A DNA stretch of 64,000 nt from a bacterium (GTDB taxonomy: Bacteria > Orphanbacterota > Orphanbacteria > JBJXGV01). Positions within the stretch are counted from its first letter, which is position 1. Every line of letters starts with the position of its first letter. The notes under the pieces are model-generated. The model was not told the DNA's origin, did not search any database, and saw nothing but the letters and a program-made list of their open reading frames with translations. Both the position numbers and the translations under genes were made by a program. The DNA is taken from positions 13,154 through 77,153 of the forward strand of contig JBJXGV010000070.1 of assembly GCA_046160485.1 (NCBI GenBank). The letters run 5' to 3'. Positions 1,432 to 62,980 of the stretch are shown here, piece after piece.

Positions 1432-1448
1432 GAATTCCTCCTCGCGGC

Positions 1449-2045: not shown

Positions 2046-2049
2046 CGCT

Positions 2050-2688: not shown

Positions 2689-2696
2689 CGGCCGCC

Positions 2697-3149
2697 TCAG
2701 CCCGGGCTCTTGAATCGGAAGCTGTCTGGGAGCAGTACGTCGAGTGTTTGCACGTCCACACGGCCCGCAAGATCGGACATGATCACGCGCAGCGCGCCGC
2801 CGAACTCGGAGAGCGCCTGGCGGCAGAGCCCGCACGGCCGGACGGGGCCGTCCGTGTCCGCGACGATCGCGATGGCGTCGAACTCGAGTTCGCCCGCTGT
2901 CACCGCCGCGAAGAGCGCCGCGCGCTCGGCGCAGACTGTCACGCCGTACGATGCGTTCTCGACGTTGACGCCGCGATACACACTGCCGGATCGCGCCAGA
3001 AGCGCCGCGCCGACAGGGAATCGTGAGTATGGCGCGTAGGCGTTCGCCCGAGCCGCCGCCGCCGCCGAGACGAGCGCGTTGTCATCCAACGGAGGCGCTC
3101 GCGTCGATCGGCTGAAAGCACGCGCGGCAGCGCGGCTCGTAGATCGCAC
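2697..3149 (-). CDS. cdd: Cytidine deaminase
   Basis: [11 protein letters not shown] and PCGLCRQ zinc-binding motifs. Maximal ORF overlaps tdk; the true start is probably a non-ATG codon near 3090. Confidence 0.75.
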
Positions 3150-3663
3150 CGCCGCCGATGACGACGCGCTCGTGCGATTCGATGAGGCGCTGCGATTTCG
3201 TCGCGGGGCGCCCGCACACGACGCATATCGCCGTCACCTTCGTGATCGAGTCGGCGATCGCGAGGAGCTGCGGAATCGGTTCGAAGGGCTTGCCGAGGTA
3301 ATCCTGGTCCAGTCCGGCGACGATGACGCGCACGCCGCGCGCGGCGAGCGCTTCGCAAACCTGCACGAGCGGCCCCGCGAGAAACTGCGCCTCGTCGATT
3401 CCGACGACGCGCGTGTCGGCGTCGACGAGATCGAGAAGTTCGTCAGCCCGCGAAACGGCGACGGACTCGACGGAGCGCGCATCGTGCGAGACGATCGTGT
3501 CCTTGGAGTAGCGCGTGTCGATCGCCGGCTTGAACGCCTGCACTTTTTGCCGCGCGATCGCGGCGCGGCGAAGGCGCCGGATCAGTTCCTCGCTCTTCCC
3601 GCTGAACATGCATCCGCAGATCACCTCGATCTGCCCGGACGACGAATCGATTCCTTCGATCAT
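3082..3663 (-). CDS. tdk: Thymidine kinase
   Basis: [17 protein letters not shown]-loop, VIGIDEAQF, and C-terminal CxxC...CxxC zinc ribbon (CVVCGRPA...PRCRAC). Confidence 0.85.
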
Positions 3664-3747
3664 GCGGCGATGCTATCAACCGCGGGCGCGCGGTGCAATC
3701 GCGAAGCCCGCGCCCTCGCCCGGGGATCTTCCGCGGATGCCCGCGAC

Positions 3748-5418
3748 TCACCTCTGCCGCGCCGCGGCCTTGTAGAGCTGCACGAAACCCGTTCCCGGCG
3801 AGACGAAGATCCTCTCGTACCCATACGAAAGCTGCTTGAGAATCCCCTTCGCGGCCAAGTTGTGCTCGTGCTCGGGGCCGAAGCCGCTGACGAGAATGTA
3901 GTCGACGCTCGCTCCGGTGCGCTTCGCGTAGTTGATGAAATCGACCCGCGGCGGCTCCGCCTCCATGTCGGGATCGGACCCGAATGCGCGGAACGGGTTC
4001 CGCTCGAACCGGTATCGGACCGGGAATACCGAGGTGTTCGCTTCGTAGTTGCGCACGTCGATTGCGCCTCGCTCCGCTGCGATGGCGGCGCCGGTGTGGA
4101 GAAATGGCTTGATGCGAGTCGAGAGCGGGCTTCCGTCCGCCGAGCGTCCGCGATGCGAGAAGCCGAGCGAGAGAATCGTTGAGTTCGGCGCAACCAGAGG
4201 CGCTGCGGTCAGACTCTCCGCGAGCAACTCGCCGGCGGCGAGGATCGTCGGCTGCCGCGCCAGCAAGAAGGCGATCCCGAACGCGAAGCCCGAGACGGCG
4301 GCGGTGCGCGCTATCCACGGCCGTAACGGCGCGCTTCCGATCGCGATGATGAGGGCCAGGACGGCGAACACCAGGATGCGGCCATTGACGTACCAGCATC
4401 CTCCGACTCCGGACGGCGCCGCGAAGTAGAGAGCGAAAAGGCTCGCCGCCGCCGCGAACAGACCCGCCGAGGGGACGCTGTCGGAATCCCGGCGGCGGAC
4501 GATCAACGCGAGTGCGAAGAGAAGCGCGAGGCAGGCTGCGTACGCAATTCCGAAGGGACGCTCGTTTTCGTTGAGCGCCACGAGCGGATCCATCGTCATG
4601 AGCTCTCGCGTCAGTTTCGCCGTTGAGACCCAACCCACTCCATGCGACTCTCCGTTGCGCTGATAGATGGCGAAGAGGGCGATCGCAGGGAGTGCTGCGA
4701 CGAGTGGCGCCAAAAGCCGGGCGCGCAGCGATCCGGGCGGCGAAGTTTCCGCGGCCCCGTTCGCCGGCCGGCCCCGATGCCGGATGCGATCAGACACCGT
4801 TGTCCAGAGGGTGACCGCTCCGATCACGAGGCCGAGCGCCCCGAGCGCGATGAGATGGCTCGCGTAGAGAAGCAGGCAGAACACCATGAACAGGCCGATC
4901 TGCCGCCAGGTCCGAAGGCCGCCGCGACGGAGCCAATAACCGAACGCCACGCACCAGACGACCACGCCGAGGCAGAAGTTGTAGAAGCCCATCTGTAGGT
5001 GCCAGCTCAGAATGAACGGGGTCGACAGAAGCGCTAGCGACGCGGCGCTCGTCCGTGTCGAGCCCAGGGCGAACCGCACTGCGAGCGCGAACGCGATGAC
5101 GTAGGTCGAGAGGAATACTTTTTCGGCGACGACCGGGGAGAACATCGTCAGAAGAAACGCCAGTGTGGCGTGGCCGAGCCAATTCGGACTTGGCGTGGCG
5201 TTCACCTCGTAGTACTCCCCGAACGCTGGCGATTCCGGATCTGAGATTCGAAGCAGGGCATCGGCGTTGTGAAGGTGCGCGGGCCCATCTTGGGTTGGGA
5301 AGCGCGCAGGCCACCAGATCAGCGCCACGTGAAGCAGGATGATCGTCGCAAGGCCGATGTCCGGCAGGGCGAGGAAGCGACTCGCCCCCCGGGGGTTCAC
5401 GGACTCACTTCCATTCAT
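3748..5418 (-). CDS. Polytopic membrane protein of unknown function embedded in the nucleoside operon
   Basis: Many hydrophobic helices ([26 protein letters not shown] etc.) and a C-terminal soluble domain. Start set at internal ATG 5416-5418 (MNGSESV) to avoid deep overlap with deoB. Confidence 0.5.
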
Positions 5419-6628
5419 CGAGAAAGCTGCGCCCTGGGCCGGGGTTCCTGACGGCAAAGAAGTCCGCGATGGTCGCAGCCAGGTCGGCGAACGTGTCGCG
5501 CAAACCGAGGTCGCGCCCGATCGGCGTCGAAGCGCGTGCGCTCCCATCCTCGATTCCTCGCGGCGTGGCCGCTCCGCCTATGAAAAGCAGCGGCACGAGT
5601 TCGCGCGAATGGTCCGTCGACGGCGTCGTGGGATCGCAGCCGTGGTCCGCGGTAAAGACAAGGCGGTCGCCGGGGCCGAGCGCGTCGATGAGCGCGGGAA
5701 CACGCGCGTCGATCTCCTCGAGAGCGCGAGCGTAGCCGGCGGTGTCGTTGCGATGGCCCCACAACATGTCGGTCTCGACGAGATTCGTGAAAAGAAATCC
5801 GCGCTCGAGTTCGGCGAGCCCGTCGAGCGTCGCGTCGAGGCACTCGGCGTTCGACTTCCCTCCGAGCGAACACGTTATGCCGCGCCCCGCGAAGATGTCG
5901 GGAATCTTGCCGACGCCCCAGACGGGAACGTGTGCCGCCTCGAGGACCTCGCAGATCGTCGGCGAAAGCGGCGGGAGCGAGAAGTCGTGGCGCCGCGGCG
6001 TGCGCGCGTACGCGCCGCTCTCCCCCGCGAAGGGCCGCGCGATCACACGGCCCACGGCGTGCGGGCCGGTGAGAATGCCGCGCGCCGTCTGACAGATCGC
6101 GTACAACTCCTTGACGGGAATCACCTCTTCGTGAGCTGCGATCTGGAAGACGCTGTCCGCCGACGTGTAAACGATCGGCTTGCCGGTGCGGCGATGTTCG
6201 TCGCCGAATTCCTCGATGATCGCGGTGCCTGACGCCGCGCGGTTCGCGAGCACGCCGCGGCCGATCGCCGCCTCGAACGGCTCGAGCACCTCGCGCGGAA
6301 ATCCGTTCGGGTACGTTGGAAACGCGCGATCCACGACGCACCCCGCCATCTCCCAATGCCCGCTCGTCGTGTCCTTCCCGTGGCTCCGCTCGCGCATCCG
6401 GCCGAACGAAGCACGCGGCGCGAGCGACGGCGGAACGCCCGCGATGTCGAGCAGATTCCCGAGCCCGAGCGATTGAAAGTTTGGAAGCCGCAGCCCGCCG
6501 ACAACGCGCGACAAATTACCGAGCGTGTTCGATCCGAGATCGCCGTACTCCGCCGCGTCGGGCGCCGCTCCAGCGCCGACTCCGTCGAGGACGATCACGA
6601 CGAACCGAACAGGAGGGCGCGAACTCAT
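5405..6628 (-). CDS. deoB: Phosphopentomutase
   Basis: N-terminal [13 protein letters not shown] and C-terminal TADHGCDPT motifs of the DeoB/alkaline-phosphatase superfamily; 407 aa. Confidence 0.85.
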
Positions 6629-7383
6629 CGGCGCGCGCTCCGTGCGGCGTCGACGAGCCGCCGCACGCGCGCCGCATCGACGGGGTTCGATGTGATGCCA
6701 CCCTGCTTCACGCTCGTGCCGACGATCGCCGCGTCGACGAATGGCGCGAGCGCCGCGGCATTCCCTTCGGCGAGGCCGCTTCCGAGGACGAGGCGCGCGC
6801 CGGGCGCGGCGTGACGAACCGATGCAAGGTACTCCGCGTCAGGCGCCGAGCCTGTGGCGGCGCCGGAGACGACGATCGCATCCGCGCCGGCGCGCCCCGA
6901 CAGCTCGGCGAGTTCCACCTTCGCATCGCGCTCGCCGAGCGGCGCGGCGTGCTTCGCGCGAAAGTCGGCCCACACCTCGACTCGGGCGCCGATCGCGCGG
7001 CGCCGCCTCATGATGGCGTGCGACTCGCCGCGCAGAAGCCCCTCGCCCGCTACCGCCAGCCCCGCGAACACGTTGACTCGAATAAACCGCGCACCCGTCG
7101 CCGCTGCGATGGCGAGCGCGGAGAGCGCGTCGTTCCGAAGCACCTGCACTCCGACCGGCGCCGGGCTCAGCGCGACGATGCGCGCGACGATCACCGACAT
7201 CGCTGCGACGGTGATTGCGTCGACGCGCCGCGGAACGAACGGCGTGTCGCCGTAGTTCTCGACAAGAAGCGCCGCGACGCCGCCGTCCAACAAGGCGCGG
7301 GCGTCCGCCACAGCAAGCTCGGCGATCTCGTGCACGGAGTGTTCAGCGCGCGGGCTTCCCGGCAGCGGTGCCAGGTGCACCAT
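6625..7383 (-). CDS. BtpA/SgcQ-family TIM-barrel protein
   Basis: Start at internal Met ([11 protein letters not shown]..., ATG at 7381-7383); the upstream 228 codons of the listed ORF are Arg-rich shadow. 4-nt overlap with the deoB start. Confidence 0.65.
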
Positions 7384-7436
7384 CCCGATGATCGGAAACA
7401 CCTCGGCGTCGAGTGACCACGGCGTCGCGTGCGCCA

Positions 7437-8696
7437 CTACGCCCGCTCCCCATCGCCGGCGCCGTCGCACCGAGATCCACGCAGCGCCGCCCCTTCGCCG
7501 CGCCCGCGCGGTGCCGCCGCGATCCCCTTCGTCTGCGCAAGAGACGCCGCGATGGCCGAGTGCGCGCGCCGTTTGACCGCGATCATCTCGGCGACGATCG
7601 ATACGGCGATCTCTTCGGGCGTCACGGCGCCAATATCGAGCCCGATCGGTGCGTGAAGCGCCAAGAGCCGCGCTTCGGGAATACCGCGCGCGAGCAACTG
7701 CGCCGCGGCGCGCTCGTGCTTTCTGCGGCTGCCGATTACGCCGAGGTAGCGAGTCGGCGGCAAGCGCAAGAGTCCCTCGAGCACCTGCTCGTCGTACTGG
7801 TGGCCGCGCGTTGCAAGAACGACGAAGTCGTGCGGCGCGAAGTCGACGCGCTCCGAAAGCTCCGCATAACCGGGAAGGACGATGCGGCGCGCGCCCGGAA
7901 AACGCTCGGCGGCGACGTACTTCTCGCGGTCGTCGACGACTGTGACTTGAAATCCCGCAGCGGTCGCGGCGGCGTGCACCGCGCGCGATACGTGCCCGGC
8001 GCCGATCAAGACAACGCGCGGGCGACCCACGACCGGTTCGAGATAGATCGCGCCGCCCGCCGCCCATGCAGAGCGTTCGTCGCGCACGGCGCTCATGGCA
8101 GTCGAGTGCAGCGCTTGCGGAAGCACCGCCAGACCGAGCAGGGGTTCGCCCTCTTCGCCGAGAACGATCCGCGCGGGAGCAGACGCGCCGCTCGCGCGAT
8201 CGCGCGGTGCCGCCGGTTCCGCGCGTGTTCCGATGAGCGGCGGCCCGCCATCGGAGAAAATTCGCGCGAGCACGCTCGTCGTTCCCAACTCGGTGCGGCG
8301 CTCGAGCAACTCACAAAGCGCGATGTCGCCCAATTCGAGCCGTTCCAGGAGAATCTCGACGGTTCCTCCGCAAACCATCCGCAATTCTTCTTCGGTTTCG
8401 GTCAATGTGAACACAACGCGCGCCCACCCTCCGGCCGCGCGCAGCTTCTGCGCCTCGCGCTGCACCTCCGCTTCGAGACAGCCGCCGCCAACGGTACCAA
8501 TCGCTTCGCCCGTATCGGAGACGAAGAGGCGCGACAGCACGGGCGCGGGCGTCGAGCCATGCACCGACGCGATCGTCGCCATCACGCCGCCGCCACACCG
8601 CGCCAATTGTTGCGCGCATTCACCAAAATGATTTCGAGAAGACACCGCGTCGCACTCCTCTCTGACGAGATCTGGTATCATGATATCACTTCGCAC
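7437..8696 (-). CDS. XdhC/CoxI-family accessory protein
   Basis: N-terminal VMATIASVHGSTPAP...TVGGGCLEAEV and central Rossmann-like VVLIGAGHVSRAV motifs typical of XdhC. Start may be 8681 or 8696. Confidence 0.65.
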   Translation of the reverse strand: MRSDIMIPDLVREECDAVSSRNHFGECAQQLARCGGGVMATIASVHGSTPAPVLSRLFVSDTGEAIGTVGGGCLEAEVQREAQKLRAAGGWARVVFTLTETEEELRMVCGGTVEILLERLELGDIALCELLERRTELGTTSVLARIFSDGGPPLIGTRAEPAAPRDRASGASAPARIVLGEEGEPLLGLAVLPQALHSTAMSAVRDERSAWAAGGAIYLEPVVGRPRVVLIGAGHVSRAVHAAATAAGFQVTVVDDREKYVAAERFPGARRIVLPGYAELSERVDFAPHDFVVLATRGHQYDEQVLEGLLRLPPTRYLGVIGSRRKHERAAAQLLARGIPEARLLALHAPIGLDIGAVTPEEIAVSIVAEMIAVKRRAHSAIAASLAQTKGIAAAPRGRGEGAALRGSRCDGAGDGERA

Positions 8697-8745
8697 AGTG
8701 CGAAGATCGACCCCCGTCGAACGCCATCAACCTCGGAGTCACAAG

Positions 8746-10995
8746 ATGAGCTGCACGCGCACCGCTTGCTTTGCATCCGCTCTCGTCTTCGCCGTACTGC
8801 TTGCGCCGTCCACCCCGAGCGCGCAGGTCGTCCTCAACGAAATCCTACCGAACCCCGCCGGCGACGACGTCGGCACAGAACGCATCGAAATCGTGAATGC
8901 TGGGCCGACATCCGTCGACGTGACGGGATGGGCCATCGATGACGCCGCGACGATCGATGAAGTGGGCGTGCGCTGCCGGATCCCTGAAGACTTCGACACC
9001 TCGGTCTGCTCGGGAAGTGCCATCCTCGCGCCGGGAGAGTTTCGCGTCGTGAAGGGAACATCCACGGCCGCGTTTCTCAACAACAGCGGTGACGACGTCT
9101 ACCTCATCAAAGATCGCACGCTCGCGCCGGTCGTCGCCGACCTCGTTACGTATCCGAGCGCGGCTCTGCAAGTCGACATGACGTGGGGCGCGATTCCGAA
9201 CGGGTCCGAGAACTTCGCGTGGCGAACGAAGACGCTCTGCGGGTCGAACGGCGGAGCGGGCGACTTCATCGCGCCCTCGACGATCGCGGATCTCGCCGCG
9301 GTGTCGGGTGCGTACTCCGGCGAAGTGCGCCTCACGTGGACCGCGCCCGGCGACGACGGCATGACCGGCACCGCGAGCGCATACGAATTCAAGGTTGCCC
9401 TCTCGTCGATCAACGCGGGGAATTTCGACACCGCGACCGATCTCGAATTTTGGATCAACGCGCCGCTGCCGCAGGCCGCGGGCACCGCGGAAACGCTTGT
9501 TGTCTTCGGGCTCGATCCCGCGTTCACGTGGCACTTCGCGGTGAAGGCGGTCGATGACGCGGCGAACCTCGGCGCCGTCTCGAACAGCCCGAGCGCGCTG
9601 CCGCTTGCAGGCGCGCTCCCCGATCCGAATCTTGGCGGCAACGTCTACTTCGGAAATCTGCATGCGCACACCGGATACTCGGACGGGCAGCTCACGCCCG
9701 CCGACGCCTACAGCTTCGCGCGGAACACGGCGCCGACGCCGCTCGACTTCCTCGCGGTAACCGATCACAACCACGCCGGCGCGGGAATGTCGCTGCCGAA
9801 CTATTCGCTCGGGCTCGCGCAAGCTGCCGCGGCGAACGATGACGGCAACTTCGTCGCGATCTACGGGCAGGAGTGGGGATTCGCTTCGAACGGACACGTC
9901 AATATTCTGGAAGCGCCCGTGCTCTTCGGCTGGGAGGCCGGCAACTACGACGTATTCGTCGCGGAAGGCGACTACCCGAGCCTCTACACCGCCGCGCTCG
10001 CGAACCCGCCCGCTTCCTATCCGGTGGTTCTGCTCTGGTGTCATCCTGCGGCGAGCGACTTCGACAACCTCGCCGTCACGAGCGATGGATTGGCGGCGGT
10101 TCATCTCATGTGTCTTGTGAACGGTCCCGCGTTCTCGACCGCGACCGACGAAACCGACGTCGGCAACACGGGCTTCGACGATGTTTTCCACGAAGCGCTC
10201 CGCAAGGGATACCGCGTTTCGCCGACCGCCGACCAAGATAATCACAACGTTACGTGGGGTGCGTCGTCGCAGAGTCGTACCGCGGCGCACGCGAGCACCA
10301 AATCGAAGGCCGCGATTCTCGGCGCGCTCGCGGCCGGCAACAACTACGCGACTCAGGATCACAACGCGCGTGTCGACTTCACCGCGGACGGGCACGGAAT
10401 GGGCGAGGCGTTCACGGCGACGAGCGGCGTGCGAATCGCGGTGCGCGTGACGGACCCGGATGTCGGCGAGACGGTGTCGCTCATCGAACTCTTCCGCGGT
10501 ATCCAAGGTGTTTCATCCGCGGTCCGCGTCGCGTGGAACGCCGACAACAACGAGCTGCATTGGCGCGAGCTCGAAGAGTTCGCCGACGGGACCGAGGTGC
10601 ACTACACGCTGCGGATCCGTCAGGGCGACAATCACAGCATTTGGACCGGACCCGCGTACATCACCTATCAATCCGCGACGGGCGTTGCGGACGGAGCGAG
10701 CGCTCCGGCGTCGGCCATTCGCCTCGCTTCCCCCACGCCGAATCCGACGCGCGGCGCAACGCGCATGGCGTTCGCCTTGCCGCGCGACGTCGCCCGCGTG
10801 CGCGCGACGTTGTTCGACGTCGAGGGACGGTTGACGCGTGTCCTTCTCGACCGGCCGCTCGGCGCGGGCAATCACGAGGTCAGGTGGGACGGCGGCCTCG
10901 CGTCGGGCCGCCAGGCGCCGCCGGGCATCTACCTGCTCCGGCTCGATGCGGGCGACGAAGGATCCGCCACCGCGAAGATTCACCTGCTTCGCTAA
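8746..10995 (+). CDS. Secreted multidomain protein: signal peptide, lamin-tail domain, Fn3-like domain, PHP phosphoesterase domain, C-terminal FlgD-like/sorting-type beta-sandwich tail
   Basis: Start at internal Met (MSCTRTACFASALVFAVLLAPSTPSAQ signal). LTD motif VVLNEILPNPAGDD...ERIEIVN...VDVTGWAIDD; PHP motif YFGNLHAHTGYSDGQ...VTDHNH; C-terminal tail PPGIYLLRL. Confidence 0.75.
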   Translation: MSCTRTACFASALVFAVLLAPSTPSAQVVLNEILPNPAGDDVGTERIEIVNAGPTSVDVTGWAIDDAATIDEVGVRCRIPEDFDTSVCSGSAILAPGEFRVVKGTSTAAFLNNSGDDVYLIKDRTLAPVVADLVTYPSAALQVDMTWGAIPNGSENFAWRTKTLCGSNGGAGDFIAPSTIADLAAVSGAYSGEVRLTWTAPGDDGMTGTASAYEFKVALSSINAGNFDTATDLEFWINAPLPQAAGTAETLVVFGLDPAFTWHFAVKAVDDAANLGAVSNSPSALPLAGALPDPNLGGNVYFGNLHAHTGYSDGQLTPADAYSFARNTAPTPLDFLAVTDHNHAGAGMSLPNYSLGLAQAAAANDDGNFVAIYGQEWGFASNGHVNILEAPVLFGWEAGNYDVFVAEGDYPSLYTAALANPPASYPVVLLWCHPAASDFDNLAVTSDGLAAVHLMCLVNGPAFSTATDETDVGNTGFDDVFHEALRKGYRVSPTADQDNHNVTWGASSQSRTAAHASTKSKAAILGALAAGNNYATQDHNARVDFTADGHGMGEAFTATSGVRIAVRVTDPDVGETVSLIELFRGIQGVSSAVRVAWNADNNELHWRELEEFADGTEVHYTLRIRQGDNHSIWTGPAYITYQSATGVADGASAPASAIRLASPTPNPTRGATRMAFALPRDVARVRATLFDVEGRLTRVLLDRPLGAGNHEVRWDGGLASGRQAPPGIYLLRLDAGDEGSATAKIHLLR

Positions 10996-11004
10996 CGTAT
11001 CGCG

Positions 11005-12519
11005 TTGCCGCCGCTCGACACCATCACGCGCGAGCCGAAGGCGTCCGATCTCGACGCGGGCGCCGCGGGGCTCGTCCAGCGGATGCACGCCGTGATCGAG
11101 CAGCTTCACGTCGCGCGCGCGGAGCTCTCGCCCGATGCCGTGCACGACCTCCGCGTTGCGCTTCGCCGATGCCGATCGATCGCCGAAGGCGCCGGGGCGA
11201 TCGACTCGCATCGAAGCTGGCGGCGCCTTCGCCGTGCGAGCCGGTCGCTCTTCCGGCAGCTCGGCGCGCTGCGCGACGCTCACGTGATGGCGGAGTGGAT
11301 CGAGAAGCTTGCGCCCGCCGGCGATACCGCGCGCGAACGCCTCTCCGCGCAGATTCACGCACGCGAAGCCCAGCTCGCTCGGTCGGCGCGCGACGCCGTG
11401 TTCGAGTTCGACGACGCCGCGTGGCGCGCGCTCGCCGCGGTGGTCGCCGCGCGCGCGGAGAGGCTGCGCCCTGGCAGCGCCGTCTTCCGCCACCTTGCGC
11501 TCGAGCGCTGGACCGAGGCGCGTGCGCTTCACGATGCCGCCCTCGAAAGCGGCAGCGGTGAGGCGTTCCACGCGCTGCGCATCGGCGTGAAGCGATTTCG
11601 CTACACCGTCGAAAACTTTCTTCCTCGGAAATACGAGGTGTGGGCGAAGCAGTTCAAGCGCGTTCAGGACTCCCTCGGCGAGATGCACGACCTCGACCTG
11701 CTCTGGGGCGCCATCGCCGCCGCCGAGCCGCCGCTTTCCGACGAGGAGCTGGCCGAGTGGCGCGACGTGCTCAGCAACGAACTCGAATCGCGTCTCTCCG
11801 ACTACCACGAACGCATGAGTGGCGATGATTCTCTCTGGGCGGAGTGGCGGGACGGGCTGCCGGACGAAGGCGCGCTTCCCGCCGTTTCGTTCGCGCGCGT
11901 TGCGGCCTGGGCCGCGCTCCGCGACCCGGCTCCGCGCCACGCGCGCCGTGTCGCGAGGCTCGCCGTGGAAATCTTCGACGGCCTCGGCGCGCTCGAGCGA
12001 GCACATCCGTTCGGCGATCGACGATCCCGGCGGTCTCTGCGCGGGGCGGCGCTCGCGCATCACATCGGACGCGCGGGCGGCCGCAGCCGCCGCCACAAGC
12101 GCACCTATCGATTGCTCACCGAACTGCGCGCACCGCTCGGTTGGGAAGAAGATGAGATTCGCGCGGTGGCGATCATCGCGCGCTACTATCGCGGGTCAGA
12201 GCCGCATGCGTCCCATGCGGGCTTTCGCGATCTCGACGCCGCGGGCCGCACGGCGGTCTCCGCACTCGCGGGCGTCCTGCGCATCGCAGACGCGCTCGAC
12301 AGCCGGCACGACGGCGCGGTCGCGCATGTGCGCGTCGAGTCGGCGCCCCCCGCGATTCTCGTTCGAGCGTTCGGATACGAAGAGGACCAACGCACCGCGG
12401 CTCGCATGGGCGGCAGAAAGCGACTTCTCGAGTCCGTTCTCGGCCGTCCGATCGTGGTCTTGGGCGCGCAGCGCGACGAGTCGCCTGCCATTCGCGCCGG
12501 AGCGCGCCCTCCGCGCTAA
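11005..12519 (+). CDS. CHAD domain protein fused to a Ppx/GppA C-terminal (HD-like) domain
   Basis: CHAD signatures (VHDLRVALRRCRS; FHALRIGVKRFRY). C-terminal 200 aa align block by block with the C-terminal domain of the neighbouring Ppx (HARRVARLAVEIFDGL vs HAEHVRSLALSLFDQL; AIIARYYRGSEP vs ACLVRYHYKAEP). Confidence 0.75.
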   Translation: MPPLDTITREPKASDLDAGAAGLVQRMHAVIEQLHVARAELSPDAVHDLRVALRRCRSIAEGAGAIDSHRSWRRLRRASRSLFRQLGALRDAHVMAEWIEKLAPAGDTARERLSAQIHAREAQLARSARDAVFEFDDAAWRALAAVVAARAERLRPGSAVFRHLALERWTEARALHDAALESGSGEAFHALRIGVKRFRYTVENFLPRKYEVWAKQFKRVQDSLGEMHDLDLLWGAIAAAEPPLSDEELAEWRDVLSNELESRLSDYHERMSGDDSLWAEWRDGLPDEGALPAVSFARVAAWAALRDPAPRHARRVARLAVEIFDGLGALERAHPFGDRRSRRSLRGAALAHHIGRAGGRSRRHKRTYRLLTELRAPLGWEEDEIRAVAIIARYYRGSEPHASHAGFRDLDAAGRTAVSALAGVLRIADALDSRHDGAVAHVRVESAPPAILVRAFGYEEDQRTAARMGGRKRLLESVLGRPIVVLGAQRDESPAIRAGARPPR

Positions 12520-13013
12520 CGCGCCAACGCGCGCAGCATCTTTCCGGTAAGCAGCCAACCGATCGTCGCCTGCGGCGGGACGGCGGATTTCATTTCGAGG
12601 CACGCGATGCCGGCTTTCTTCAACGCGGTCGCCGCGCCCTTGGCACCCAGCGCGAGGGAGATCATCTCGTCGAGGTGCGTGGCATGGCCGAAACACGCGA
12701 CATCCTTGCCGTTGAGCTTCGCGATCTCCTGAAAGATCGCGCGCGGATTCGCGCACGGCTTGAGCGCCGCGGTCTTGCGAAGTGCCGACTTCGAAACGTC
12801 GAAGGCTGCGGCGAAAAGCTCGGCCGTCTCGAGCGCGCGCGTGTAGGGACTCGTAAGAAAGACCTCGGGCGCCGCGCCGAGCGCGCGGAAGCCGCGCGCT
12901 GCGGCTTGCGTTTTGAGGATTCCGTCCGCCGTCAACGCACGCGCCGGATCGGCGGGCGAAGCGGGGTCGTTCCGATCGATCGCGATTCCATGCCGCACGA
13001 CGTAGAGCCTCAT
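12516..13013 (-). CDS. sixA: Histidine phosphatase family protein (SixA-like phosphohistidine phosphatase)
   Basis: MRLYVVRHGIA N-terminal RHG motif, about 165 aa, conserved late His (CFGHATH). Confidence 0.7.
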   Translation of the reverse strand: MRLYVVRHGIAIDRNDPASPADPARALTADGILKTQAAARGFRALGAAPEVFLTSPYTRALETAELFAAAFDVSKSALRKTAALKPCANPRAIFQEIAKLNGKDVACFGHATHLDEMISLALGAKGAATALKKAGIACLEMKSAVPPQATIGWLLTGKMLRALAR

Positions 13014-13037
13014 GATTTCTGAAAATCCCCCTCGAGC

Positions 13038-14579
13038 CTAGTGGGCCGCCGCCGACTCGACGCGCACGACCACGCCGAATTCTTCTTCGAAGAGGCTCGC
13101 ACGCCGCGCAGCCTCATCGATCGATCGCCTTTCGGCTTTCGCCGGCGTCACGCGAATGACCACTTCGCCGCGAACGAACGCGACGTCGACCCGGCGAACG
13201 GCGCGACCCATGTCGACGTCGAGCGCGGACGCGAGGCGAAGAATCGCGGTGAGCCCGCGCACCTGATGTTGCCGCTCCGTATCGAGCCCTCCGTACACCT
13301 TGTGATCGGGCACCGGTTCCGCTTTGTAGTGATAGCGCACAAGACACGCGAGCATGTCGCGCCGCCATCCGTTGATGCCATCGATCTCGCCGTGGCGCAC
13401 GAGATATTCGCCGTGTTTGTGATGATCGCGATGGTTGACGAAGTGCCCCGCGTCGTGAAGAAGCGCGCCGAGCGACAAAACGACGCGCTCGTCGCGGCCC
13501 ATTCCGTGCAGCGGGCGGAGCTGATCGAAAAGCGAAAGCGCGAGCGATCGCACGTGCTCGGCGTGTTTCATGTCGCAGTGAAGCCGCCGCCCGAAGGCGC
13601 GCGCCTTCTCGAGAAGCAACCGCGAACGCGCGTCGTCCGGCCCGATCGCCGGCAGCGCGAAGTGGCCGCTTACGAGGTCGTCGAGCACGCCTTCGCGAAC
13701 GCCGACGCCGGGCACGAGCAACTCGCGCAGCGAGAGCATCCGCCCGAGAGTCGTGAATATGATCGCGGCGATTCCCATCACCTCGGCGCGGTCGCGGCGC
13801 ACATCGAAGAGCCGCATCCGTCCGCGAACGTCGTTCGAGAGAATCTGCGGGAGGCGGTTCGTCAGCACGCGAAGGCTCAGCGACGGGATGCCGTGCGGCC
13901 GCCGGCCCGGCGCGATCTGCGCGAGCGCTTCCGCGTTTCCGCCGCAGGCCACGACGACGGCGCGCGACAGGTCGCCTGCGCGAGAAAGATTGCGTCCGAT
14001 CTTCGCGACGATGCGGCGCTCGAGCGCGGCTCGCATCGCCGCGTCGATTTTGCCGGACACGTCGAACGTTTCCATAAGGCGCACGGTCCCGACCGGAAGC
14101 GTGACGCTCCGCTCGACGTCGCCGCCGCGCATCAGGTTCAGCTCCAAGCTCCCGCCGCCGAGATCCACGATCAATCGCGGCGCAAGATCTTCCCCCAGGC
14201 TCGCGCGCACGGCCGCGCGCACCAGGCGTGCTTCGTCATTGCCGCCGATGACCGTAAGCCGGATGCCCGACTCGCGCTGAATCCGGCGTAGGAGCGCGGC
14301 GCGATTCTTCGCCTCGCGCGTCGCCGAGGTCGCCACCGCGCGGTACTTCGTGACGTGATACCGGTTCATGAGCGCGCGGAAGTGGCAAAACGCCTTCGCT
14401 GCCGCGGCGATCGTCGCGCGGTCGAACGCACCATCCGTGAAGACGTTGTGCCCGAGCCGAACGGGGACGCGCTCCGTCTCGAGCACGCGGACGCGAAGCG
14501 GCGACTCGGCGCGGGCGATCAACAAGCGAATCGCGTTCGATCCGGCGTCGATCGTCGCGAACTGAACCGGTGCGTTCAC
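13038..14579 (-). CDS. ppx: Exopolyphosphatase / guanosine pentaphosphate phosphohydrolase (Ppx/GppA)
   Basis: GTG start at 14577-14579 (VNAPVQFATIDAGSNAIRLLIA); IVDLGGGSLEL actin-like fold motif; C-terminal LLHDAGHFVNHRDHHKH HD-like domain. The listed 747-aa ORF has a long shadow N-terminus. Confidence 0.8.
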   Translation of the reverse strand: MNAPVQFATIDAGSNAIRLLIARAESPLRVRVLETERVPVRLGHNVFTDGAFDRATIAAAAKAFCHFRALMNRYHVTKYRAVATSATREAKNRAALLRRIQRESGIRLTVIGGNDEARLVRAAVRASLGEDLAPRLIVDLGGGSLELNLMRGGDVERSVTLPVGTVRLMETFDVSGKIDAAMRAALERRIVAKIGRNLSRAGDLSRAVVVACGGNAEALAQIAPGRRPHGIPSLSLRVLTNRLPQILSNDVRGRMRLFDVRRDRAEVMGIAAIIFTTLGRMLSLRELLVPGVGVREGVLDDLVSGHFALPAIGPDDARSRLLLEKARAFGRRLHCDMKHAEHVRSLALSLFDQLRPLHGMGRDERVVLSLGALLHDAGHFVNHRDHHKHGEYLVRHGEIDGINGWRRDMLACLVRYHYKAEPVPDHKVYGGLDTERQHQVRGLTAILRLASALDVDMGRAVRRVDVAFVRGEVVIRVTPAKAERRSIDEAARRASLFEEEFGVVVRVESAAAH

Positions 14580-14581
14580 CC

Positions 14582-15349
14582 CTAGCGCCAAAGAGGAGCG
14601 AGCGCGGCCGAAGGCTGGTAGCGTGTTCTGCGAATGCCGAGGTGCTGCGCGATGCGGCGGCGAAGCCCGTTGTTGATCGCGCGAATCCCCAGCTCGCCGT
14701 CCATCTCCTCGAACTTGTGGCGCCGCGAGAGCGACTGGAACTGCGTGCGGACCAACTGCTGGTAACGGATAAACGAGCGATACAGATCGTTCGAGAGCGA
14801 CATATCGCGCCCCGCTTCCCAATAGCTGATGACGCTCGACTTCTTGAACTCGCGTTCGAACGCGGCTTGCGGGCCGACCTTGAGCCAGAACGTCAGGTCG
14901 GGGCGAAGCGCCATCGCGTAGAGGCCGTGCAGGTATTCGCGCGAAAGCCCGCGCACCGCGCTCCGCGCGATCAGCGAGTAGATGTAGCGGTCGGCGAGCA
15001 CGACCATTCCCGATCGAAGGGCCGGAATGATGCGGTGCTCGAGCTGATCGAAGAAGTCGGTGGCGTACATGAGCGCGAGCGTCAGGCGCGTGACGGCGTT
15101 TTCCGCGAGAAGGTTGTCGATGTCGCGCGCCACGAGATTCGAGCGCCGCAGTCCCATCGTCTGGACTGGAAACCCCTCGGACTCGAGCCACTCTTTCAGA
15201 AGCGCGATCTGGGTCGACCGCCCGGAGCCGTCCGTCCCTTCGATGACGATCAGAGAGCCCGACAGCTCTTCGGGTGCGCACCCGGGAAGCACGGTTCCGT
15301 AGAAGCGTGTCGCCTCGACCGACGCCGCCTTTCGCTTTCGCGTCGTCAT
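14582..15349 (-). CDS. Thymidylate kinase-like P-loop kinase (paralog 1)
   Basis: Start at internal Met (MTTRKRK); LIVIEGTDGSGRSTQ P-loop and VLADRYIYS (DRY) motif. Confidence 0.7.
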   Translation of the reverse strand: MTTRKRKAASVEATRFYGTVLPGCAPEELSGSLIVIEGTDGSGRSTQIALLKEWLESEGFPVQTMGLRRSNLVARDIDNLLAENAVTRLTLALMYATDFFDQLEHRIIPALRSGMVVLADRYIYSLIARSAVRGLSREYLHGLYAMALRPDLTFWLKVGPQAAFEREFKKSSVISYWEAGRDMSLSNDLYRSFIRYQQLVRTQFQSLSRRHKFEEMDGELGIRAINNGLRRRIAQHLGIRRTRYQPSAALAPLWR

Positions 15350-16077
15350 CGGCGCGGACCGAACCGGCTCAGATCGATTCGCGTTGCGACCTTCGCCCGC
15401 ATATCTTCTTGCAGTTTGTTCACGGGCAACGTGCCGTCCATCAGCACGAAATTGTCGGTTGCGATCATCTGCTCGTACTCGTCCATGATCATTCCCTGGA
15501 AGCGGCGGAAACTTTCGCCGGGATCGAACGACAATCCCAAGTCCATCCCCGCCTCGTAGTGTTTGAGTTTCGGGCGCCCGCCGAGGATGCGATTGACCGC
15601 GACGTCGAGCGGCGCGCGGAAATAGAACGTGATATCGGGAATCGGCGCGAAGCCGTAGAGATTGCGAAGCCACGCCGTCGAGCAGCCGCGAGCCGAGTCG
15701 CGCGCGAACGCCGTGTAGATGTAGCGGTCCGCGAGCACGAGGTAGCCGCTCTGCAACAGCGGGAGAATCTGCCGCTCGCACCGGTCCGCGAAATCGGCGG
15801 AGTGCAGAAGCGAGAACGTGACGGGCGTCAGGAGCCGGCGGCGTTTTCCGCGCCGCGTCGCCGCCTTGACGAGCAGCGACGAATTCCACTCGGTGAAGTG
15901 AATCCGGTACCCCGAGATCTCGAGCCAGCGCTTCAGAAGATAAAGCTGCGTGCTCTTCCCGGAGCCGTCGATTCCTTCGACGACGATGAGCGCGCCAGGA
16001 TAGTCGCGGCCGCCCGTGTTCCGCGCACTGGCGCGGAGCGCCGCCGCGCGCGGCTCTTTTGCGAGGACGCGTGTCAT
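15346..16077 (-). CDS. Thymidylate kinase-like P-loop kinase (paralog 2)
   Basis: LIVVEGIDGSGKSTQ P-loop and LVLADRYIYT motif; 4-nt overlap with paralog 1. Confidence 0.7.
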   Translation of the reverse strand: MTRVLAKEPRAAALRASARNTGGRDYPGALIVVEGIDGSGKSTQLYLLKRWLEISGYRIHFTEWNSSLLVKAATRRGKRRRLLTPVTFSLLHSADFADRCERQILPLLQSGYLVLADRYIYTAFARDSARGCSTAWLRNLYGFAPIPDITFYFRAPLDVAVNRILGGRPKLKHYEAGMDLGLSFDPGESFRRFQGMIMDEYEQMIATDNFVLMDGTLPVNKLQEDMRAKVATRIDLSRFGPRR

Positions 16078-16213
16078 GACGGTGAGATTACACGCTGCAC
16101 AGCGAACGAGGGAAGCGATGAACGCGCCCCGAGTGTGACAATTCCGTGGTGGTGCGTGGCACCACGAGTGTGCAGAGGAATCGCGACGCGAGCGGCCATG
16201 GAGGCGAGCGCGG

Positions 16214-17419
16214 CTAAAGGCCGACGCGCGCGCGCTTGGCGAGAACGGATTCGGAAAGACACGGGCAATCTTGCAGGACCGAAAGCGTCACGGTCCTCCC
16301 GGAAGCAATCGTCGCAACGACCGTCACGGGCGCGCCGCTCCCGAGCTCGCGCGCCAGCTCCACGTCGCCTGTGGCCGTCGGCCGGAACGTCAGCGTCGCA
16401 ACGCCGCCGGAGAATCGCCCCTCGTCGATCGGGATCGGGCCATAGCGGATGTCGTCGTTCTCGAGTGTCACGCTGCCGTCGAGGATCGAACCTTCCTGCT
16501 CCGTGGCGATTCTCAGATCGTAGCTCTCGCCGGCGATCGTCGCGGGAATCGTGATCTCGAATTCGTCGTAGACACGCGCGGCCGTCCAGGACGTTCCGCC
16601 GGTGAAGCAGGTATCGATCACTCCGGCAACGTTCGTCTCCTGCCAGATGAAGAAGCGCACGACGCTCCCCTGATCGAGACGACCCGCGTAGCGAATCGGC
16701 GCGGCGCAACCGAGCGACTCCGCGAGCGCGCCCGTCGGATCGTCGGCGGGATCGACGATGAAGAAGATGGTGCTCGTGTCGGAGACGCCGCCTGTGACCA
16801 GCGGGAGCGTCGGCCCGATCGTCCCGCCCTGCGCGTTCCCGTACGTGATCTGAATGTTCCCGGTAAGCGACGCACCGTCTTGGATGAGGGAGAGCTCGCC
16901 GAGCATTCGCGAGCGCCCGAGCGGGCGGTCGAGCGGGCCCCGCGCGGTGAAGACCGGCGTTTCCAACGCCGCCGCGCCCGAGGCGACGAGGCACTGCTCG
17001 CTCGCGCAGTTCTGCGACACGCTCAAGAGCATCGTTTCGCGGTTCACGAGCGCGCCGTCGAATCGAACGGGCGCCGCGTTGCCGAACGCGTCGATCACCG
17101 CGACGATCGGCGGCGAGAACGGATCGATCGTGAACGAGAACCCAGCATCCGAGAGCGAACCCTGCGCGAGCGCGTACTCGCCGACCGGTTCGCGATTCTC
17201 GAGGACGATCAGTCGGCCGCCGATCGAGGTGTCGCGTTCCTCGAGCTCGAGGATCGCCTCCGTGCCATCGAGGTCCGTGATTTCCCAGCGGCCGGTGATG
17301 GAGTTCGAGGACTGCAGCGGGTCGCCGCTCTCGCCGCAGCCGAAGAGAAGCATGGCGACCGAAAGGACGAGAGGCGCGCGGATCGATCGCGCATTCGATG
17401 AGGACGCTCGCCAGATCAC
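16214..17419 (-). CDS. Hypothetical lipoprotein
   Basis: N-terminal signal with lipobox (LVLSVAMLLFGCGES); Thr/Gly/Ser-rich non-shadow composition; no recognised catalytic motif. Confidence 0.5.
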   Translation of the reverse strand: MIWRASSSNARSIRAPLVLSVAMLLFGCGESGDPLQSSNSITGRWEITDLDGTEAILELEERDTSIGGRLIVLENREPVGEYALAQGSLSDAGFSFTIDPFSPPIVAVIDAFGNAAPVRFDGALVNRETMLLSVSQNCASEQCLVASGAAALETPVFTARGPLDRPLGRSRMLGELSLIQDGASLTGNIQITYGNAQGGTIGPTLPLVTGGVSDTSTIFFIVDPADDPTGALAESLGCAAPIRYAGRLDQGSVVRFFIWQETNVAGVIDTCFTGGTSWTAARVYDEFEITIPATIAGESYDLRIATEQEGSILDGSVTLENDDIRYGPIPIDEGRFSGGVATLTFRPTATGDVELARELGSGAPVTVVATIASGRTVTLSVLQDCPCLSESVLAKRARVGL

Positions 17420-23329: not shown

Positions 23330-23338
23330 GAGAGCCGG

Positions 23339-24811: not shown

Positions 24812-24945
24812 TCACGACTCCAAGGGGGCGAGGACGATGTTCTGTTCGGCGATTTTGTCGGCGAATGATAGCAGCGCAAGGGAAGCCGGGCAAACAGGGC
24901 GCGCACGGGAGCGCGACGACGCGCGATCCGGCGATGCTCGCGCTG

Positions 24946-24975: not shown

Positions 24976-24983
24976 GTCGCTCG

Positions 24984-58441: not shown

Positions 58442-58466
58442 CGCGCGCGCGCCACGACGGCCGGCG

Positions 58467-60142: not shown

Positions 60143-62980
60143 GTGACACTGCAACGTGACCATCACGAAGCACACCGTGTCCTAACCCGGCTTCGCACAC
60201 GCAGACACGCCGCGGGCCTCGCCGCGATTTCCGTGTCGGCATCGCTTCTTCTCTCATTCGCCGGCCCCGCGTTAGCGCACGAAGAACCAGGCGCGCAAGT
60301 TCACGCGCTCTCGGAAGCGATCGCAAGCAGCCCCGGGGACGCCGGGCTCCTCCTCCGCCGCGCCGCGCTCTACCTCCTCGATCATGAGTGGGACGCGGCC
60401 GGAATCGATCTCGATCGCGCGGAGCGGATCGCTCCTGGGCTCGACGGGGTCGCGGTTGCGCGCGCCCAGCTTCACCTCGGCACCGGCGACCCCGCGCGGG
60501 CGGTTGCGAGCGCGAATCAGCACCTTGCGCGTCACCCCGGGAGTGCCGAAGCACTGCGGCTGCGCGCCCGTGCGCACCTGGCGCTCGGCGACGCGAACGC
60601 GGCGGTGCGCGATCTGGGCGCCGCGATCGACGCGTCGCCTCGGCCGGCGCCCGAGATCTACATCGAGCGCGCGAACGCGATCCTCACCGCAGATGCGAAC
60701 GACGCGCACGACGCTCTTCGAACGCTCGACGAAGGCGAGGAACGTCTCGGTGTCAGCGCTCCGTTGTCACTTCGTGCGATCGAAATCGAACTCGCGCGCG
60801 GCGACACGGCGGCGGCGCGCCGGCGCGCCGATCGGCTCGACGAGGCACCGTCGCGCGCCGTTTCCGCGGGATCGCGAATGGACGCGTCGAGCGTGTCCGT
60901 CGCCGCCCCCGGGGCGCAATCCTCCGCCGCCGACCCGGTCTTCGTGCCCGCGGGCGCCGTGTGGCGCTACAACGCGACCGGCACCGACCTCGGCATCGCG
61001 TGGCGCGATCCTGCGTACGATGACGCCGCGTTGCCCGCGGGCGCCGCGCCGCTCGGATACGGCGAGCCCTACATCGTTACGACCATCCCCTCCGGCTCGC
61101 CGGCGCGCTATCCGACGAGTTACTTCCGCACCGAATTCACGCTCCTCAACGCGACCATCGACGTCGGCCGGTTGACGCTGCGCGCGAACTACGACGACGG
61201 CTTCGTCGCGTACCTCAACGGCCGCGAGATTCTCCGGCGCATGATGCCGGATGGGGAGATCACCTACGCGACGTTCGCGGCGGGCCAACACGAGGGCGGC
61301 GCTCTCGAGACTTACGACCTCTCGCAGTTCGTCGGATACCTCTCCGCCGGAACGAACGTCCTCGCGGTCGAAGCGCACCAGGTCAACGCGACGAGCAGCG
61401 ATCTGGTGATGGACATCGAACTCTCGGGTTCGACGGAATCGGCGGTCGTCACGCGCGGCCCGTATCTGCAAGTCGGCACCCCGACGAGCGTCGCGGTTCG
61501 CTGGCGCACGGATGCGGCGGTCGTCGGACGCGTGCGATACGGCGCAAGCCCGAACGCACTCGATGCTTTCGTCGAGGAGGCGGGCGCGACGACGGAGCAC
61601 ATCGTCACGCTCGCCAACCTCTCCCCCGACACCAAGGTGTACTACGCCGTCGGAACGGGAAATGAAATCCACGCGGGCGGCGACGCCGATCACTTCGTCG
61701 TGACGCCGCCCGCGCCCGGCGCCGCGCGGAGCGCGCGCATCTGGGTCATCGGCGACTCCGGGCGCGGCAACGCCGGTGCGCGCGCCGTGCGCGATGCGTA
61801 TTTCGATTTCGCGGCGGATCGCGACACGGATCTATGGCTCATGCTCGGCGACAACGCCTACAACAGCGGGACCGATGCCGAGTACCAAGCGGGCGTCTTC
61901 GACGTCTACGGCGATATTCTGCGCAACTCGGTGCTCTGGCCGACGCGCGGCAATCACGACGGCGTCTACCCCGGCCCGAACAACGACTACTACGACATCT
62001 TTTCGATGCCGACAGGCGCCGAAGCCGGCGGCGTGCCATCCGGAAGCGAGGCGTACTACTCGTTCGACTTCGGACGCGTCCACTTCGTGTGCCTCGACTC
62101 CGAGGGCTCCGACCGTTCTCCGAGCGGGGCGATGCTCACGTGGCTCGATGCGGACCTCGCCGCGAACACGCAAGACTGGACGGTCGCGTTCTGGCATCAC
62201 CCGCCCTACACGAAGGGCTCTCACGATTCCGACAACCCGTTCGACAGCGCCGGACGAATGAAAGACATGCGCGAGAACGCACTGCCGATTCTCGAGGAGC
62301 ACGGAGTCGATCTCGTCCTGACCGGGCACAGCCATTCCTACGAGCGATCGTTCCTCATCGACGGACACTACGGGACATCGGACACGTTCGCGGACTCGAT
62401 GACGATCGACGGCGGCGACGGAAGCATCCTCGGCGATGGCGCGTACACGAAGCCGACGCTCGGACCGGGTGCGCACGAGGGCTCGATCTTCGCGGTCGCG
62501 GGAAGTTCAGCGACAATCAGCGGCGGCTCGCTCGATCATCCGGTCATGATTACGTCGCTCAACATTCTCGGATCGATGGTCGTCGACGTGAACGGCAATC
62601 AACTCGACGCGATCTTCCTCAGCGACACAGGCGCGATCCTCGACGAGTTCACGATCGTCAAAGACGCGATGACCGGAGTCGCCGCGCCGGTGCGCGGCGC
62701 GGGTGCGCTCGCGATCCGATCGATCGAGCCCAACCCGGCGCGCGACACCGCGCGCATTCACTACACGATTCCCTCGACGGGGCCGGTGACGGTCACGGTG
62801 CACGATACGTCGGGGCGGCTCGTCGCCACGGTCGAGGATGGCGTGCGCGGTGCGGGCGCGCATGTGGCGACCTGGGATGGCCGCGGCGCCGATGGCCGGC
62901 AAGCGGCTGCCGGCGTCTACGTCGGCCGCGTCCGGTTCCTCGGCGCGGAGCGCGCGCACAAACTCGTCATCATGCGATGA
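60143..62980 (+). CDS. Secreted TPR / purple-acid-phosphatase-like metallophosphoesterase with C-terminal FlgD-like/sorting-type tail
   Basis: C-terminal part of a 1473-aa shadow-extended ORF; GTG start proposed at 60143. Signal-like AAISVSASLLLSFAGPALA; metallophosphatase motifs (WVIGDSG; LMLGDNAYN; TRGNHD; LTGHSHSYER); tail ends GVYVGRVRF. Confidence 0.7.
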   Translation: MTLQRDHHEAHRVLTRLRTRRHAAGLAAISVSASLLLSFAGPALAHEEPGAQVHALSEAIASSPGDAGLLLRRAALYLLDHEWDAAGIDLDRAERIAPGLDGVAVARAQLHLGTGDPARAVASANQHLARHPGSAEALRLRARAHLALGDANAAVRDLGAAIDASPRPAPEIYIERANAILTADANDAHDALRTLDEGEERLGVSAPLSLRAIEIELARGDTAAARRRADRLDEAPSRAVSAGSRMDASSVSVAAPGAQSSAADPVFVPAGAVWRYNATGTDLGIAWRDPAYDDAALPAGAAPLGYGEPYIVTTIPSGSPARYPTSYFRTEFTLLNATIDVGRLTLRANYDDGFVAYLNGREILRRMMPDGEITYATFAAGQHEGGALETYDLSQFVGYLSAGTNVLAVEAHQVNATSSDLVMDIELSGSTESAVVTRGPYLQVGTPTSVAVRWRTDAAVVGRVRYGASPNALDAFVEEAGATTEHIVTLANLSPDTKVYYAVGTGNEIHAGGDADHFVVTPPAPGAARSARIWVIGDSGRGNAGARAVRDAYFDFAADRDTDLWLMLGDNAYNSGTDAEYQAGVFDVYGDILRNSVLWPTRGNHDGVYPGPNNDYYDIFSMPTGAEAGGVPSGSEAYYSFDFGRVHFVCLDSEGSDRSPSGAMLTWLDADLAANTQDWTVAFWHHPPYTKGSHDSDNPFDSAGRMKDMRENALPILEEHGVDLVLTGHSHSYERSFLIDGHYGTSDTFADSMTIDGGDGSILGDGAYTKPTLGPGAHEGSIFAVAGSSATISGGSLDHPVMITSLNILGSMVVDVNGNQLDAIFLSDTGAILDEFTIVKDAMTGVAAPVRGAGALAIRSIEPNPARDTARIHYTIPSTGPVTVTVHDTSGRLVATVEDGVRGAGAHVATWDGRGADGRQAAAGVYVGRVRFLGAERAHKLVIMR

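Follow-up and report, generated by a model that had tools for sequence, protein, structure and literature searches.

The DNA stretch analyzed here, a window of 64,000 nucleotides from the bacterial contig JBJXGV010000070.1 (positions 13,154 to 77,153 of the forward strand), carries two genes for predicted exported phosphoesterases which terminate in a related domain, in the following referred to as the tail. Gene 1 codes for a PHP-type metallohydrolase preceded by a lamin tail domain (LTD), and gene 2 for a purple-acid-phosphatase-type enzyme preceded by tetratricopeptide (TPR) repeats (Table 1). The sequence-only reading, made from the letters of the window, had described the two cargo portions in these terms, which is correct according to the Pfam and NCBIfam domains. 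It had also located the tails and quoted their motifs correctly, either tail being the extreme C-terminus of a long open reading frame (ORF). In addition, it had likened the tail to FlgD-Ig-like domains and to the C-terminal domains (CTDs) that act as sorting signals in the secretion system of type IX (T9SS), and had taken both enzymes as cargo of one export or surface-attachment pathway.

Table 1. Coordinates of the two phosphoesterase genes of the window and of their predicted domains.
Feature	Position	Strand	Basis or remark
Gene 1: exported (predicted) LTD and PHP/CehA-McbA metallohydrolase with C-terminal tail, 749 aa	8746..10995	+	ORF, domains, orthologues
Gene 1, predicted Sec signal peptide (MSCTRTACFASALVFAVLLAPSTPSAQ)	8746..8826	+	Read by eye
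Lamin tail domain (LTD)	8809..9123	+	PF00932, 44 bits (cutoff 34.3), E 3.2e-11
PHP-type CehA/McbA metallohydrolase domain (phosphoesterase core)	9646..10560	+	NF038032, 84.3 bits (cutoff 80), E 1e-23; LHAHTGYSDG motif
Tail 1: T9SS type A-like / FlgD_ig-like C-terminal domain (predicted)	10702..10992	+	Last residue adjoins stop (10993-10995)
Gene 2: exported (predicted) TPR and purple-acid-phosphatase-type metallophosphoesterase with C-terminal tail, 945 aa	60143..62980	+	ORF, domains, orthologue
Gene 2, predicted signal peptide	60143..60277	+	Read by eye: long basic n-region, hydrophobic AAISVSASLLLSFAGPALA, then HEE
TPR repeats	60302..60862	+	Several TPR Pfam models, E 1e-5 to 1e-3, all under gathering score
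Purple acid phosphatase N-terminal (Fn3-like) domain	61463..61666	+	PF16656 (Pur_ac_phosph_N), 36.5 bits (gathering score 30)
Calcineurin-like metallophosphoesterase domain	61736..62341	+	PF00149 (Metallophos), 60.2 bits (gathering score 21.5)
Tail 2: T9SS type A C-terminal domain (predicted)	62678..62977	+	Last residue adjoins stop (62978-62980), 0 aa away

The final 99 amino acids of the two gene products align by BLASTP with 31 identities in 79 positions (39%), one gap, and an E-value of 4e-16. The alignment proposed as a check is significant, and the common pattern of the two C-termini is borne out by it. The motifs NPTRG.., FDVEGRL, WDG, and GIYLLRL of tail 1 have their counterparts in NPARD.., HDTSGRL, WDG, and GVYVGRV of tail 2. 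Outside the tails, the proteins (640 and 839 residues, resp.) are unrelated, with a best E-value of 1.1 in BLASTP, just as had been claimed for the enzymes themselves. From a six-frame translation of the window, a profile built from both tails retrieves just these two copies, the next match having an E-value of 0.05. A recent exchange of the domain between genes 1 and 2 was considered and rejected because the tails, with a mutual identity of 34-39%, are no closer to each other than to the remaining tails of the family.

Further proteins carrying the tail, for which a search had been recommended, are numerous in related contigs. The census covers ~690 kb, that is, the window and 12 loci (~240 kb) plus 71 further metagenome loci (453 kb) that were found by a scan with the consensus sequence of the hidden Markov model of the tail. 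In the window and the 12 loci, with about one tail-bearing gene per 17 kb, the tail ends 0-17 residues before the stop codon in all 24 stop-terminated ORFs; in the 71 metagenome loci, it ends 0-18 residues before the stop in 93 of 93, and no ORF has multiple copies. This amounts to 117 out of 117 stop-terminated tail-bearing ORFs with a single copy that ends 0-18 residues before the stop. The cargo is diverse, comprising phosphoesterases, glucoamylase, glucose/sorbosone dehydrogenase (GSDH), CBM96, TIG, WD40, and beta-helix proteins as well as HExxH metalloproteases. A strict terminal position together with diverse cargo is the pattern predicted for a C-terminal sorting signal; a structural module would not give it. 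Orthologues of gene 1 are present on eight contigs (56-64% identity), of which five bear the title Candidatus Eisenbacteria and three that of "uncultured bacterium", and the tail is retained in all eight. Homologues of its PHP core, with 34-35% identity, are found on one Bacteroidota and one Ignavibacteria contig; at the position equivalent to that of the tail, the Ignavibacteria homologue possesses a canonical Por_Secre_tail (33.9 bits; gathering score, 27).

With regard to family assignment, FlgD_ig (PF13860) is the best-scoring Pfam family for either tail; tail 1 reaches 32.9 bits and tail 2 45.1 bits, and the gathering score of 27 is exceeded by both. The NCBIfam model TIGR04183, by which T9SS type A sorting domains are defined (PMC11205867), has a cutoff of 23; tail 2 exceeds it with 30.1 bits for the tail alone and 25.1 bits within the whole protein, and tail 1 lies just under it. 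Both halves of the earlier assignment, FlgD-Ig-like or T9SS-type, are supported on these grounds. Among 25 family tails, 23 match FlgD_ig, 22 match TIGR04183 and 11 Por_Secre_tail (E<=1e-3 for the latter two), and the PorU model is matched, in its CTD part, by 15. Known T9SS type A CTDs (TIGR04183 / PF18962) are, for example, those of RgpB, PorU, and PorZ of Porphyromonas gingivalis, mirolase of Tannerella forsythia, and NucA of Flavobacterium johnsoniae. From one species to another, CTDs are known not to be compatible (PMC11285876). The T9SS type B CTD (TIGR04131 / CHU_C, PF13585) is likewise a C-terminal T9SS signal, but the tails are not of this type; PF13585 gives 13.4 bits with tail 2 (gathering score, 27) and no match with tail 1.

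Conserved across the alignment of the 25 tails are the PNP strand, F-x-LP, V-Y-D-x-x-G-R, A-G-x-H, W-D-G, G-V-Y-F-x-R-L, and, at the very end before the stop, [KR]-h-x-h-h-[RK]. The residue G54 (in DVEGRL and DTSGRL, resp.), located at the start of beta4 within motif Lbeta3beta4, is invariant in all of them. In both window tails (KIHLLR and KLVIMR), and in 20 of 23 complete tails, a lysine or arginine is found six residues from the end; in the other three, it is one position off. The two CTD motifs that are important for secretion in P. gingivalis (PMC11285876) consist of the glycine of the beta3-beta4 turn and, within the last strand, a basic residue (motif C-t.). The tails are preceded by a small-residue linker, GVADGASAPASA in gene 1 and GVAAPVRGAGA in gene 2. 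In the AlphaFold2 model of tail 1 (pLDDT, 93.7) the tail is a small beta-sandwich; it has the compact Ig-like 3+4 arrangement of seven strands that is seen in solved CTDs (PMC11285876). By itself, the Foldseek search of the PDB did not discriminate among CTD, FlgD, and Fn3 folds.

Components of a T9SS beyond the tail, which likewise had been suggested for a search, were encountered in part. Contig L086 encodes a PorU of 1329 residues with a full-length match to NF033707 (595.7 bits; cutoff, 420; E 1.5e-178). This PorU itself carries the tail, ending two residues before the stop, and PorU of P. gingivalis likewise keeps its own CTD. Its gene is located 3.4 kb upstream of a PorV-like gene, and a second protein with Peptidase_C25 and FlgD_ig is found at the equivalent position on a 2.0-Mb contig. 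PorV/PorQ-family proteins in Eisenbacteria-type contigs score 110-115 bits (cutoff, 90). One of the family, at L049:3264-4316, was found among the outer-membrane-like ORFs of the metagenome loci (NF033709, 109.6 bits; cutoff, 90); homologues of it are named [quoted passage not shown] at NCBI. The order of genes in this neighborhood is conserved as (PorU) - HU - RNase R - PilZ - PorV-like - TPR - PEGA - tail-bearing HExxH metalloprotease - ComEC. The PorU/PorV cluster is seen at L086:2631-11053 and also at L091:2952-11008, and its TPR and PEGA proteins could be further, unrecognized parts of the system. The 2450-amino acid open ORF of L026 was tried as a candidate for SprA and rejected, as it gave no SprA match; other ORFs with an aromatic last residue turned out, except for the PorV-like one, to be unrelated proteins or to match no family.

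At this point, homology and fold of the tails are established, as well as their strict confinement to the C-terminus, their occurrence on many unrelated cargoes, and the existence of genes for PorU and PorV/PorQ within the same candidate phylum. The strict C-terminal position on very diverse cargo, the conservation of both CTD motifs that are functional in P. gingivalis (PMC11285876), the canonical Por_Secre_tail on the Ignavibacteria homologue of gene 1, and the PorU and PorV/PorQ-family genes in Eisenbacteria-type contigs argue for a sorting signal. With a probability of roughly 80%, both tails would be T9SS type A CTDs of an FlgD-Ig-like flavor, common outside the Bacteroidota, and would serve the export of both enzymes. 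The same evidence supports the proposal that the two enzymes are cargo of one export pathway; they would probably be sent to the cell surface by a single, known one.

According to this reading, each enzyme would be carried over the inner membrane by Sec via its N-terminal signal peptide. In gene 1, a short polar start followed by a hydrophobic core and a small-residue cleavage region is recognizable in MSCTRTACFASALVFAVLLAPSTPSAQ, and in gene 2, there is a signal-peptide-like segment with ...RLRTRRHAAGLAAISVSASLLLSFAGPALA, both judged by inspection of the sequence and not by a predictor. Folding of the enzymes would follow in the periplasm. Judging from the homologous systems of P. gingivalis and F. 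johnsoniae, recognition of the C-terminal seven-strand beta-sandwich by the T9SS translocon and a shuttle of the PorV family would come next, and the PorU sortase would cut the small-residue linker ahead of the PNP strand, upon which the enzyme would be released or attached to the surface. Eventually, the LTD-bearing PHP-type metallohydrolase and the purple acid phosphatase would be displayed outside the cell, where a plausible role would be the harvest of phosphate from extracellular organophosphates or nucleic acids, or the scavenging of nucleotides.

Several findings weigh against an assignment of the tails to the T9SS. On Pfam Por_Secre_tail (PF18962), tail 1 reaches 13.1 bits and tail 2 19.1 bits, both under the gathering score of 27, so that the recommended profile check was positive for FlgD_ig and negative for Por_Secre_tail. 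On TIGR04183, tail 1 attains 19.4 bits alone and 15.2 bits in the whole protein and, with this, stays under the cutoff of 23. When the 25-tail profile is compared with the PDB, true FlgD Ig domains rank first (E 3e-10), ahead of the CTDs of PorU, RgpB, and PorZ (E 1e-4 to 3e-3). In sequence, the tail therefore stands between the two families, with FlgD Ig domains on one side and classical CTDs on the other, and its core is FlgD-Ig-like including the WDG loop. The central part of the tails aligns with FlgD of the flagellar hook cap (PF13860) from Salmonella and Pseudomonas (E 3e-10 to 9e-9) over the core v-x-i-x-D-x-x-G-r-x-V ... aG-x-h-x-x-x-WDG-x-d-x-x-G ... G-x-Y. In comparison with Bacteroidota and Ignavibacteria type A tails, an extra loop of ~6 residues, W-D-G-x-d-x-x-G, is present in the window tails, and database relatives of the tail carry both the PF18962 and the PF13860 annotation. 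A relation to FlgD in the flagellar sense, with the tails having a role in hook assembly or being misannotated FlgD fragments, could be read from the NCBIfam FlgD equivalog models, which match the tails with E-values of 1e-8 to 1e-9, from the rank of solved FlgD Ig domains as the best PDB sequence matches, and from some fragments being called "flagellar hook assembly protein FlgD" by JGI. However, the equivalog scores are 31-36 bits, compared with cutoffs of 230-383 bits, and the alignment is restricted to the Ig-like part (FlgD model positions 83-156 of 197). The domain sits behind phosphoesterase catalytic domains in proteins with predicted signal peptides, and flagellar genes are absent from the window in Pfam and NCBIfam scans. 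A flagellar identity is effectively refuted by the domain architecture, leaving it next to no probability.

Also on the opposing side stands the fact that many giant proteins use the same Ig core internally, as a structural repeat. An exhaustive search with the tail profile yields 458,042 representative proteins, and at the top of the matches are giant ones in which as many as 29 copies follow each other in tandem within the chain. Proteins of this kind (e.g., P0117 and P0062, among P0009-P0158) have up to ~7800 amino acids, with the FlgD_ig-like core in tandem. It would be conceivable from this that the tail is a generic FlgD_ig Ig module, such as a structural spacer, a stabilizer, or an adhesion domain, which is terminal by chance and without any role in sorting. 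In the lineage considered here, however, the domain is never internal or repeated (117 of 117 single copies at the stop), and the terminal copies are built differently. The model end is reached by 1.7% of 896 internal copies versus 92% of 24 terminal copies; internal repeats are without the final strand and mostly without the PNP strand, whereas terminal copies have the final strand with its conserved basic residue and, usually, the PNP strand. Neither this N-terminal PNP strand nor the C-terminal basic strand, both of which the tails add to the core, is aligned in FlgD or in the internal FlgD_ig repeats. The tail on PorU itself, as in P. gingivalis, speaks in the same direction, and the generic module is regarded as improbable.

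Finally, the machinery itself is incompletely represented, which again counts against the T9SS assignment. None of its components is present in the 64-kb window, as judged by Pfam and NCBIfam scans of essentially all ORFs. SprA/Sov and PorK/L/M/N were not found in the Eisenbacteria DNA examined, which is a small part of any genome; the sample being small and the search not genome-wide, their absence is attributed to the sample. The half of the machinery search that succeeded is that for PorU and PorV/PorQ, and the PorV-like protein of L049 scores highest with the NCBIfam model "putative type IX sorting system protein PorV2" at 157 bits, under the cutoff of 325, with 25-31 bits for canonical PorV. 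These scores and the finding of PorU and PorV/PorQ-family genes as the sole components are what would be expected if the tail were the sorting or anchoring signal of a non-canonical pathway, be it a reduced or variant type IX-like system (PorU and PorV-type, with a different translocon) or direct anchoring to the S-layer or lipopolysaccharide. The WDG loop, typical of FlgD and absent from Bacteroidota and Ignavibacteria tails, and the lack of an Eisenbacteria-T9SS connection in the literature searched point the same way. On the other hand, PorU fits the canonical equivalog model in full length and well over its cutoff, the missing SprA/PorKLMN would be explained by the small DNA sample, and tails that have the WDG loop occur together with tails that lack it in one genome (Candidatus Eisenbacteria RBG_16_71_46, L002), which argues for one family. 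A non-canonical pathway of this sort is therefore considered unlikely. A more specific proposal, put forward tentatively and with considerable doubt, is that Eisenbacteria would run a variant type IX system, in which an FlgD-Ig-like CTD subclass (PNP strand, WDG loop, and basic last strand) would be read by a PorV2-like barrel and PorU, and from which the translocon and motor that are canonical in Bacteroidota might be missing; in that case, T9SS CTDs and the hook-cap Ig domain would share ancestry, with the tail family as a living intermediate between them.

The assignment to T9SS type A CTDs, preferred here, is in line with what is found in other phyla. Proteins of the FCB group, from metagenome-assembled genomes (MAGs) of KSB1, Krumholzibacteria, Cloacimonadota, and Bacteroidota, belong to the same tail family, with E-values of 1e-22 to 1e-30 against the profile of the tail, and are named at NCBI either "FlgD immunoglobulin-like domain containing protein" or "T9SS type A sorting domain-containing protein". 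Compared with these, the window pair shows no difference in kind and constitutes additional members with phosphoesterase cargo. In contrast to the known hosts of T9SS type A proteins, the window was assigned here to Candidatus Eisenbacteria, a phylum not covered in the T9SS literature searched. In that literature, no paper was found on Eisenbacteria together with T9SS or type IX secretion, nothing was found on C-terminal secretion by "FlgD Ig-like" domains, and the sole paper found on Eisenbacteria and secretion systems is silent on T9SS. A homologue search with the tails as query gave only short fragments (<200 amino acids). On the ENA contigs L011 and L012 (136-159 kb), many short fragmented gene calls are found, e.g., S8 peptidases followed by separate small ORFs consisting of the tail only. 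This fragmentation looks like frameshift errors of long-read assemblies, which explains the many 90-200-amino acid "tail-only" database proteins. One tail fragment, P0272, is labeled [quoted passage not shown]; the archaeal label is probably due to a binning contaminant in an archaeal MAG.

Much of this is already known, namely, the T9SS type A CTD class, the wide distribution of its FlgD-Ig-like variant in FCB-group MAGs, and the naming of PorV/PorQ proteins in Eisenbacteria by NCBI. New points are solely the T9SS in Eisenbacteria, absent from the literature searched, and the intermediate position of the tail between FlgD Ig domains and classical CTDs. Understanding of how the T9SS works is unchanged; the result is unsurprising and of use for annotation. 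Two phosphoesterases of an uncultured soil and sediment phylum now have an export route assigned to them and are probably located outside the outer membrane, the tail is a reliable marker of the Candidatus Eisenbacteria secretome, and evidence from PorU and PorV/PorQ is added for T9SS-type sorting in this candidate phylum. As to annotation, C-terminal tails that are labeled "FlgD Ig-like domain" in FCB-group MAGs should be regarded as T9SS sorting domains and not as parts of a flagellum.

The open frame of gene 1 extends from 8680 to 10995, and its refined start is the ATG at 8746, with GGAG 7 nucleotides upstream. Gene 1 is surrounded by a run of nucleotide-salvage and polyphosphate genes (window 271-16287). 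It includes genes for adenosine deaminase, RpiB, a deoxynucleoside kinase, thymidine kinase, and a metalloenzyme-superfamily (phosphopentomutase-like) protein, followed by XdhC, CHAD plus PPX domain III, a histidine phosphatase, Ppx/GppA, and a thymidylate-kinase-like gene. Since the window neighbors of gene 1 (XdhC, CHAD/PPX, and others) are not kept beside its orthologues, no operon-based function is drawn from them. In L002, the contig mentioned above for its mixed tails, a "secretome island" is located at L002:3-12115, with five tail-bearing genes in 17 kb coding for a glucoamylase, the gene 1 orthologue, a small protein, a CBM96 protein, and GSDH. One of the L002 tails has no WDG loop, and its Por_Secre_tail score is above its FlgD_ig score.

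Gene 2 starts with the GTG at 60143, right behind the stop of the preceding gene. A perfect TATAAT box (window 60131-60145) ends 7 nucleotides before this GTG, and no Shine-Dalgarno sequence is visible; the mRNA of gene 2 may be leaderless, as far as this arrangement goes. The metallophosphoesterase motifs GDSG, GDNAY, GNHD, WHH, and GHSH are present in the translation. An orthologue on the Eisenbacteria contig L005 shows 63% identity across the catalytic part and 39% in the TPR region. Between the TPR repeats and the phosphatase, gene 2 includes a segment of ~190 residues (window 60833-61411) with a jelly-roll or carbohydrate-binding-like look, which has no counterpart in L005 and no Pfam match. 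At L005:7136-12098, the purple acid phosphatase orthologue is the next gene upstream of the orthologue of gene 1, with both on one strand, whereas in the window genes 1 and 2 are ~50 kb apart. The adjacency in L005 suggests that the two tail-bearing phosphoesterases act together. Immediately upstream of gene 2 is an FHA-GAF-PP2C (SpoIIE) gene (window 58167-60083, + strand). A homologue with the same architecture (L090:11130-12887; 37.5% identity over 578 amino acids) lies directly downstream of a PorV-like gene on a 2.45-Mb contig.

Elsewhere in the window, a molybdenum cofactor (Moco) riboswitch is encoded at 34521-34641 on the minus strand (Rfam RF01055, 87.2 bits), upstream of a radical-SAM MoaA-like gene at 33551-34579. 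At 22184-26780, a MoxR-like AAA+ gene and a VWA gene adjoin a gene for a PolX-type DNA polymerase that contains a pol beta thumb, HhH, and a PHP domain.

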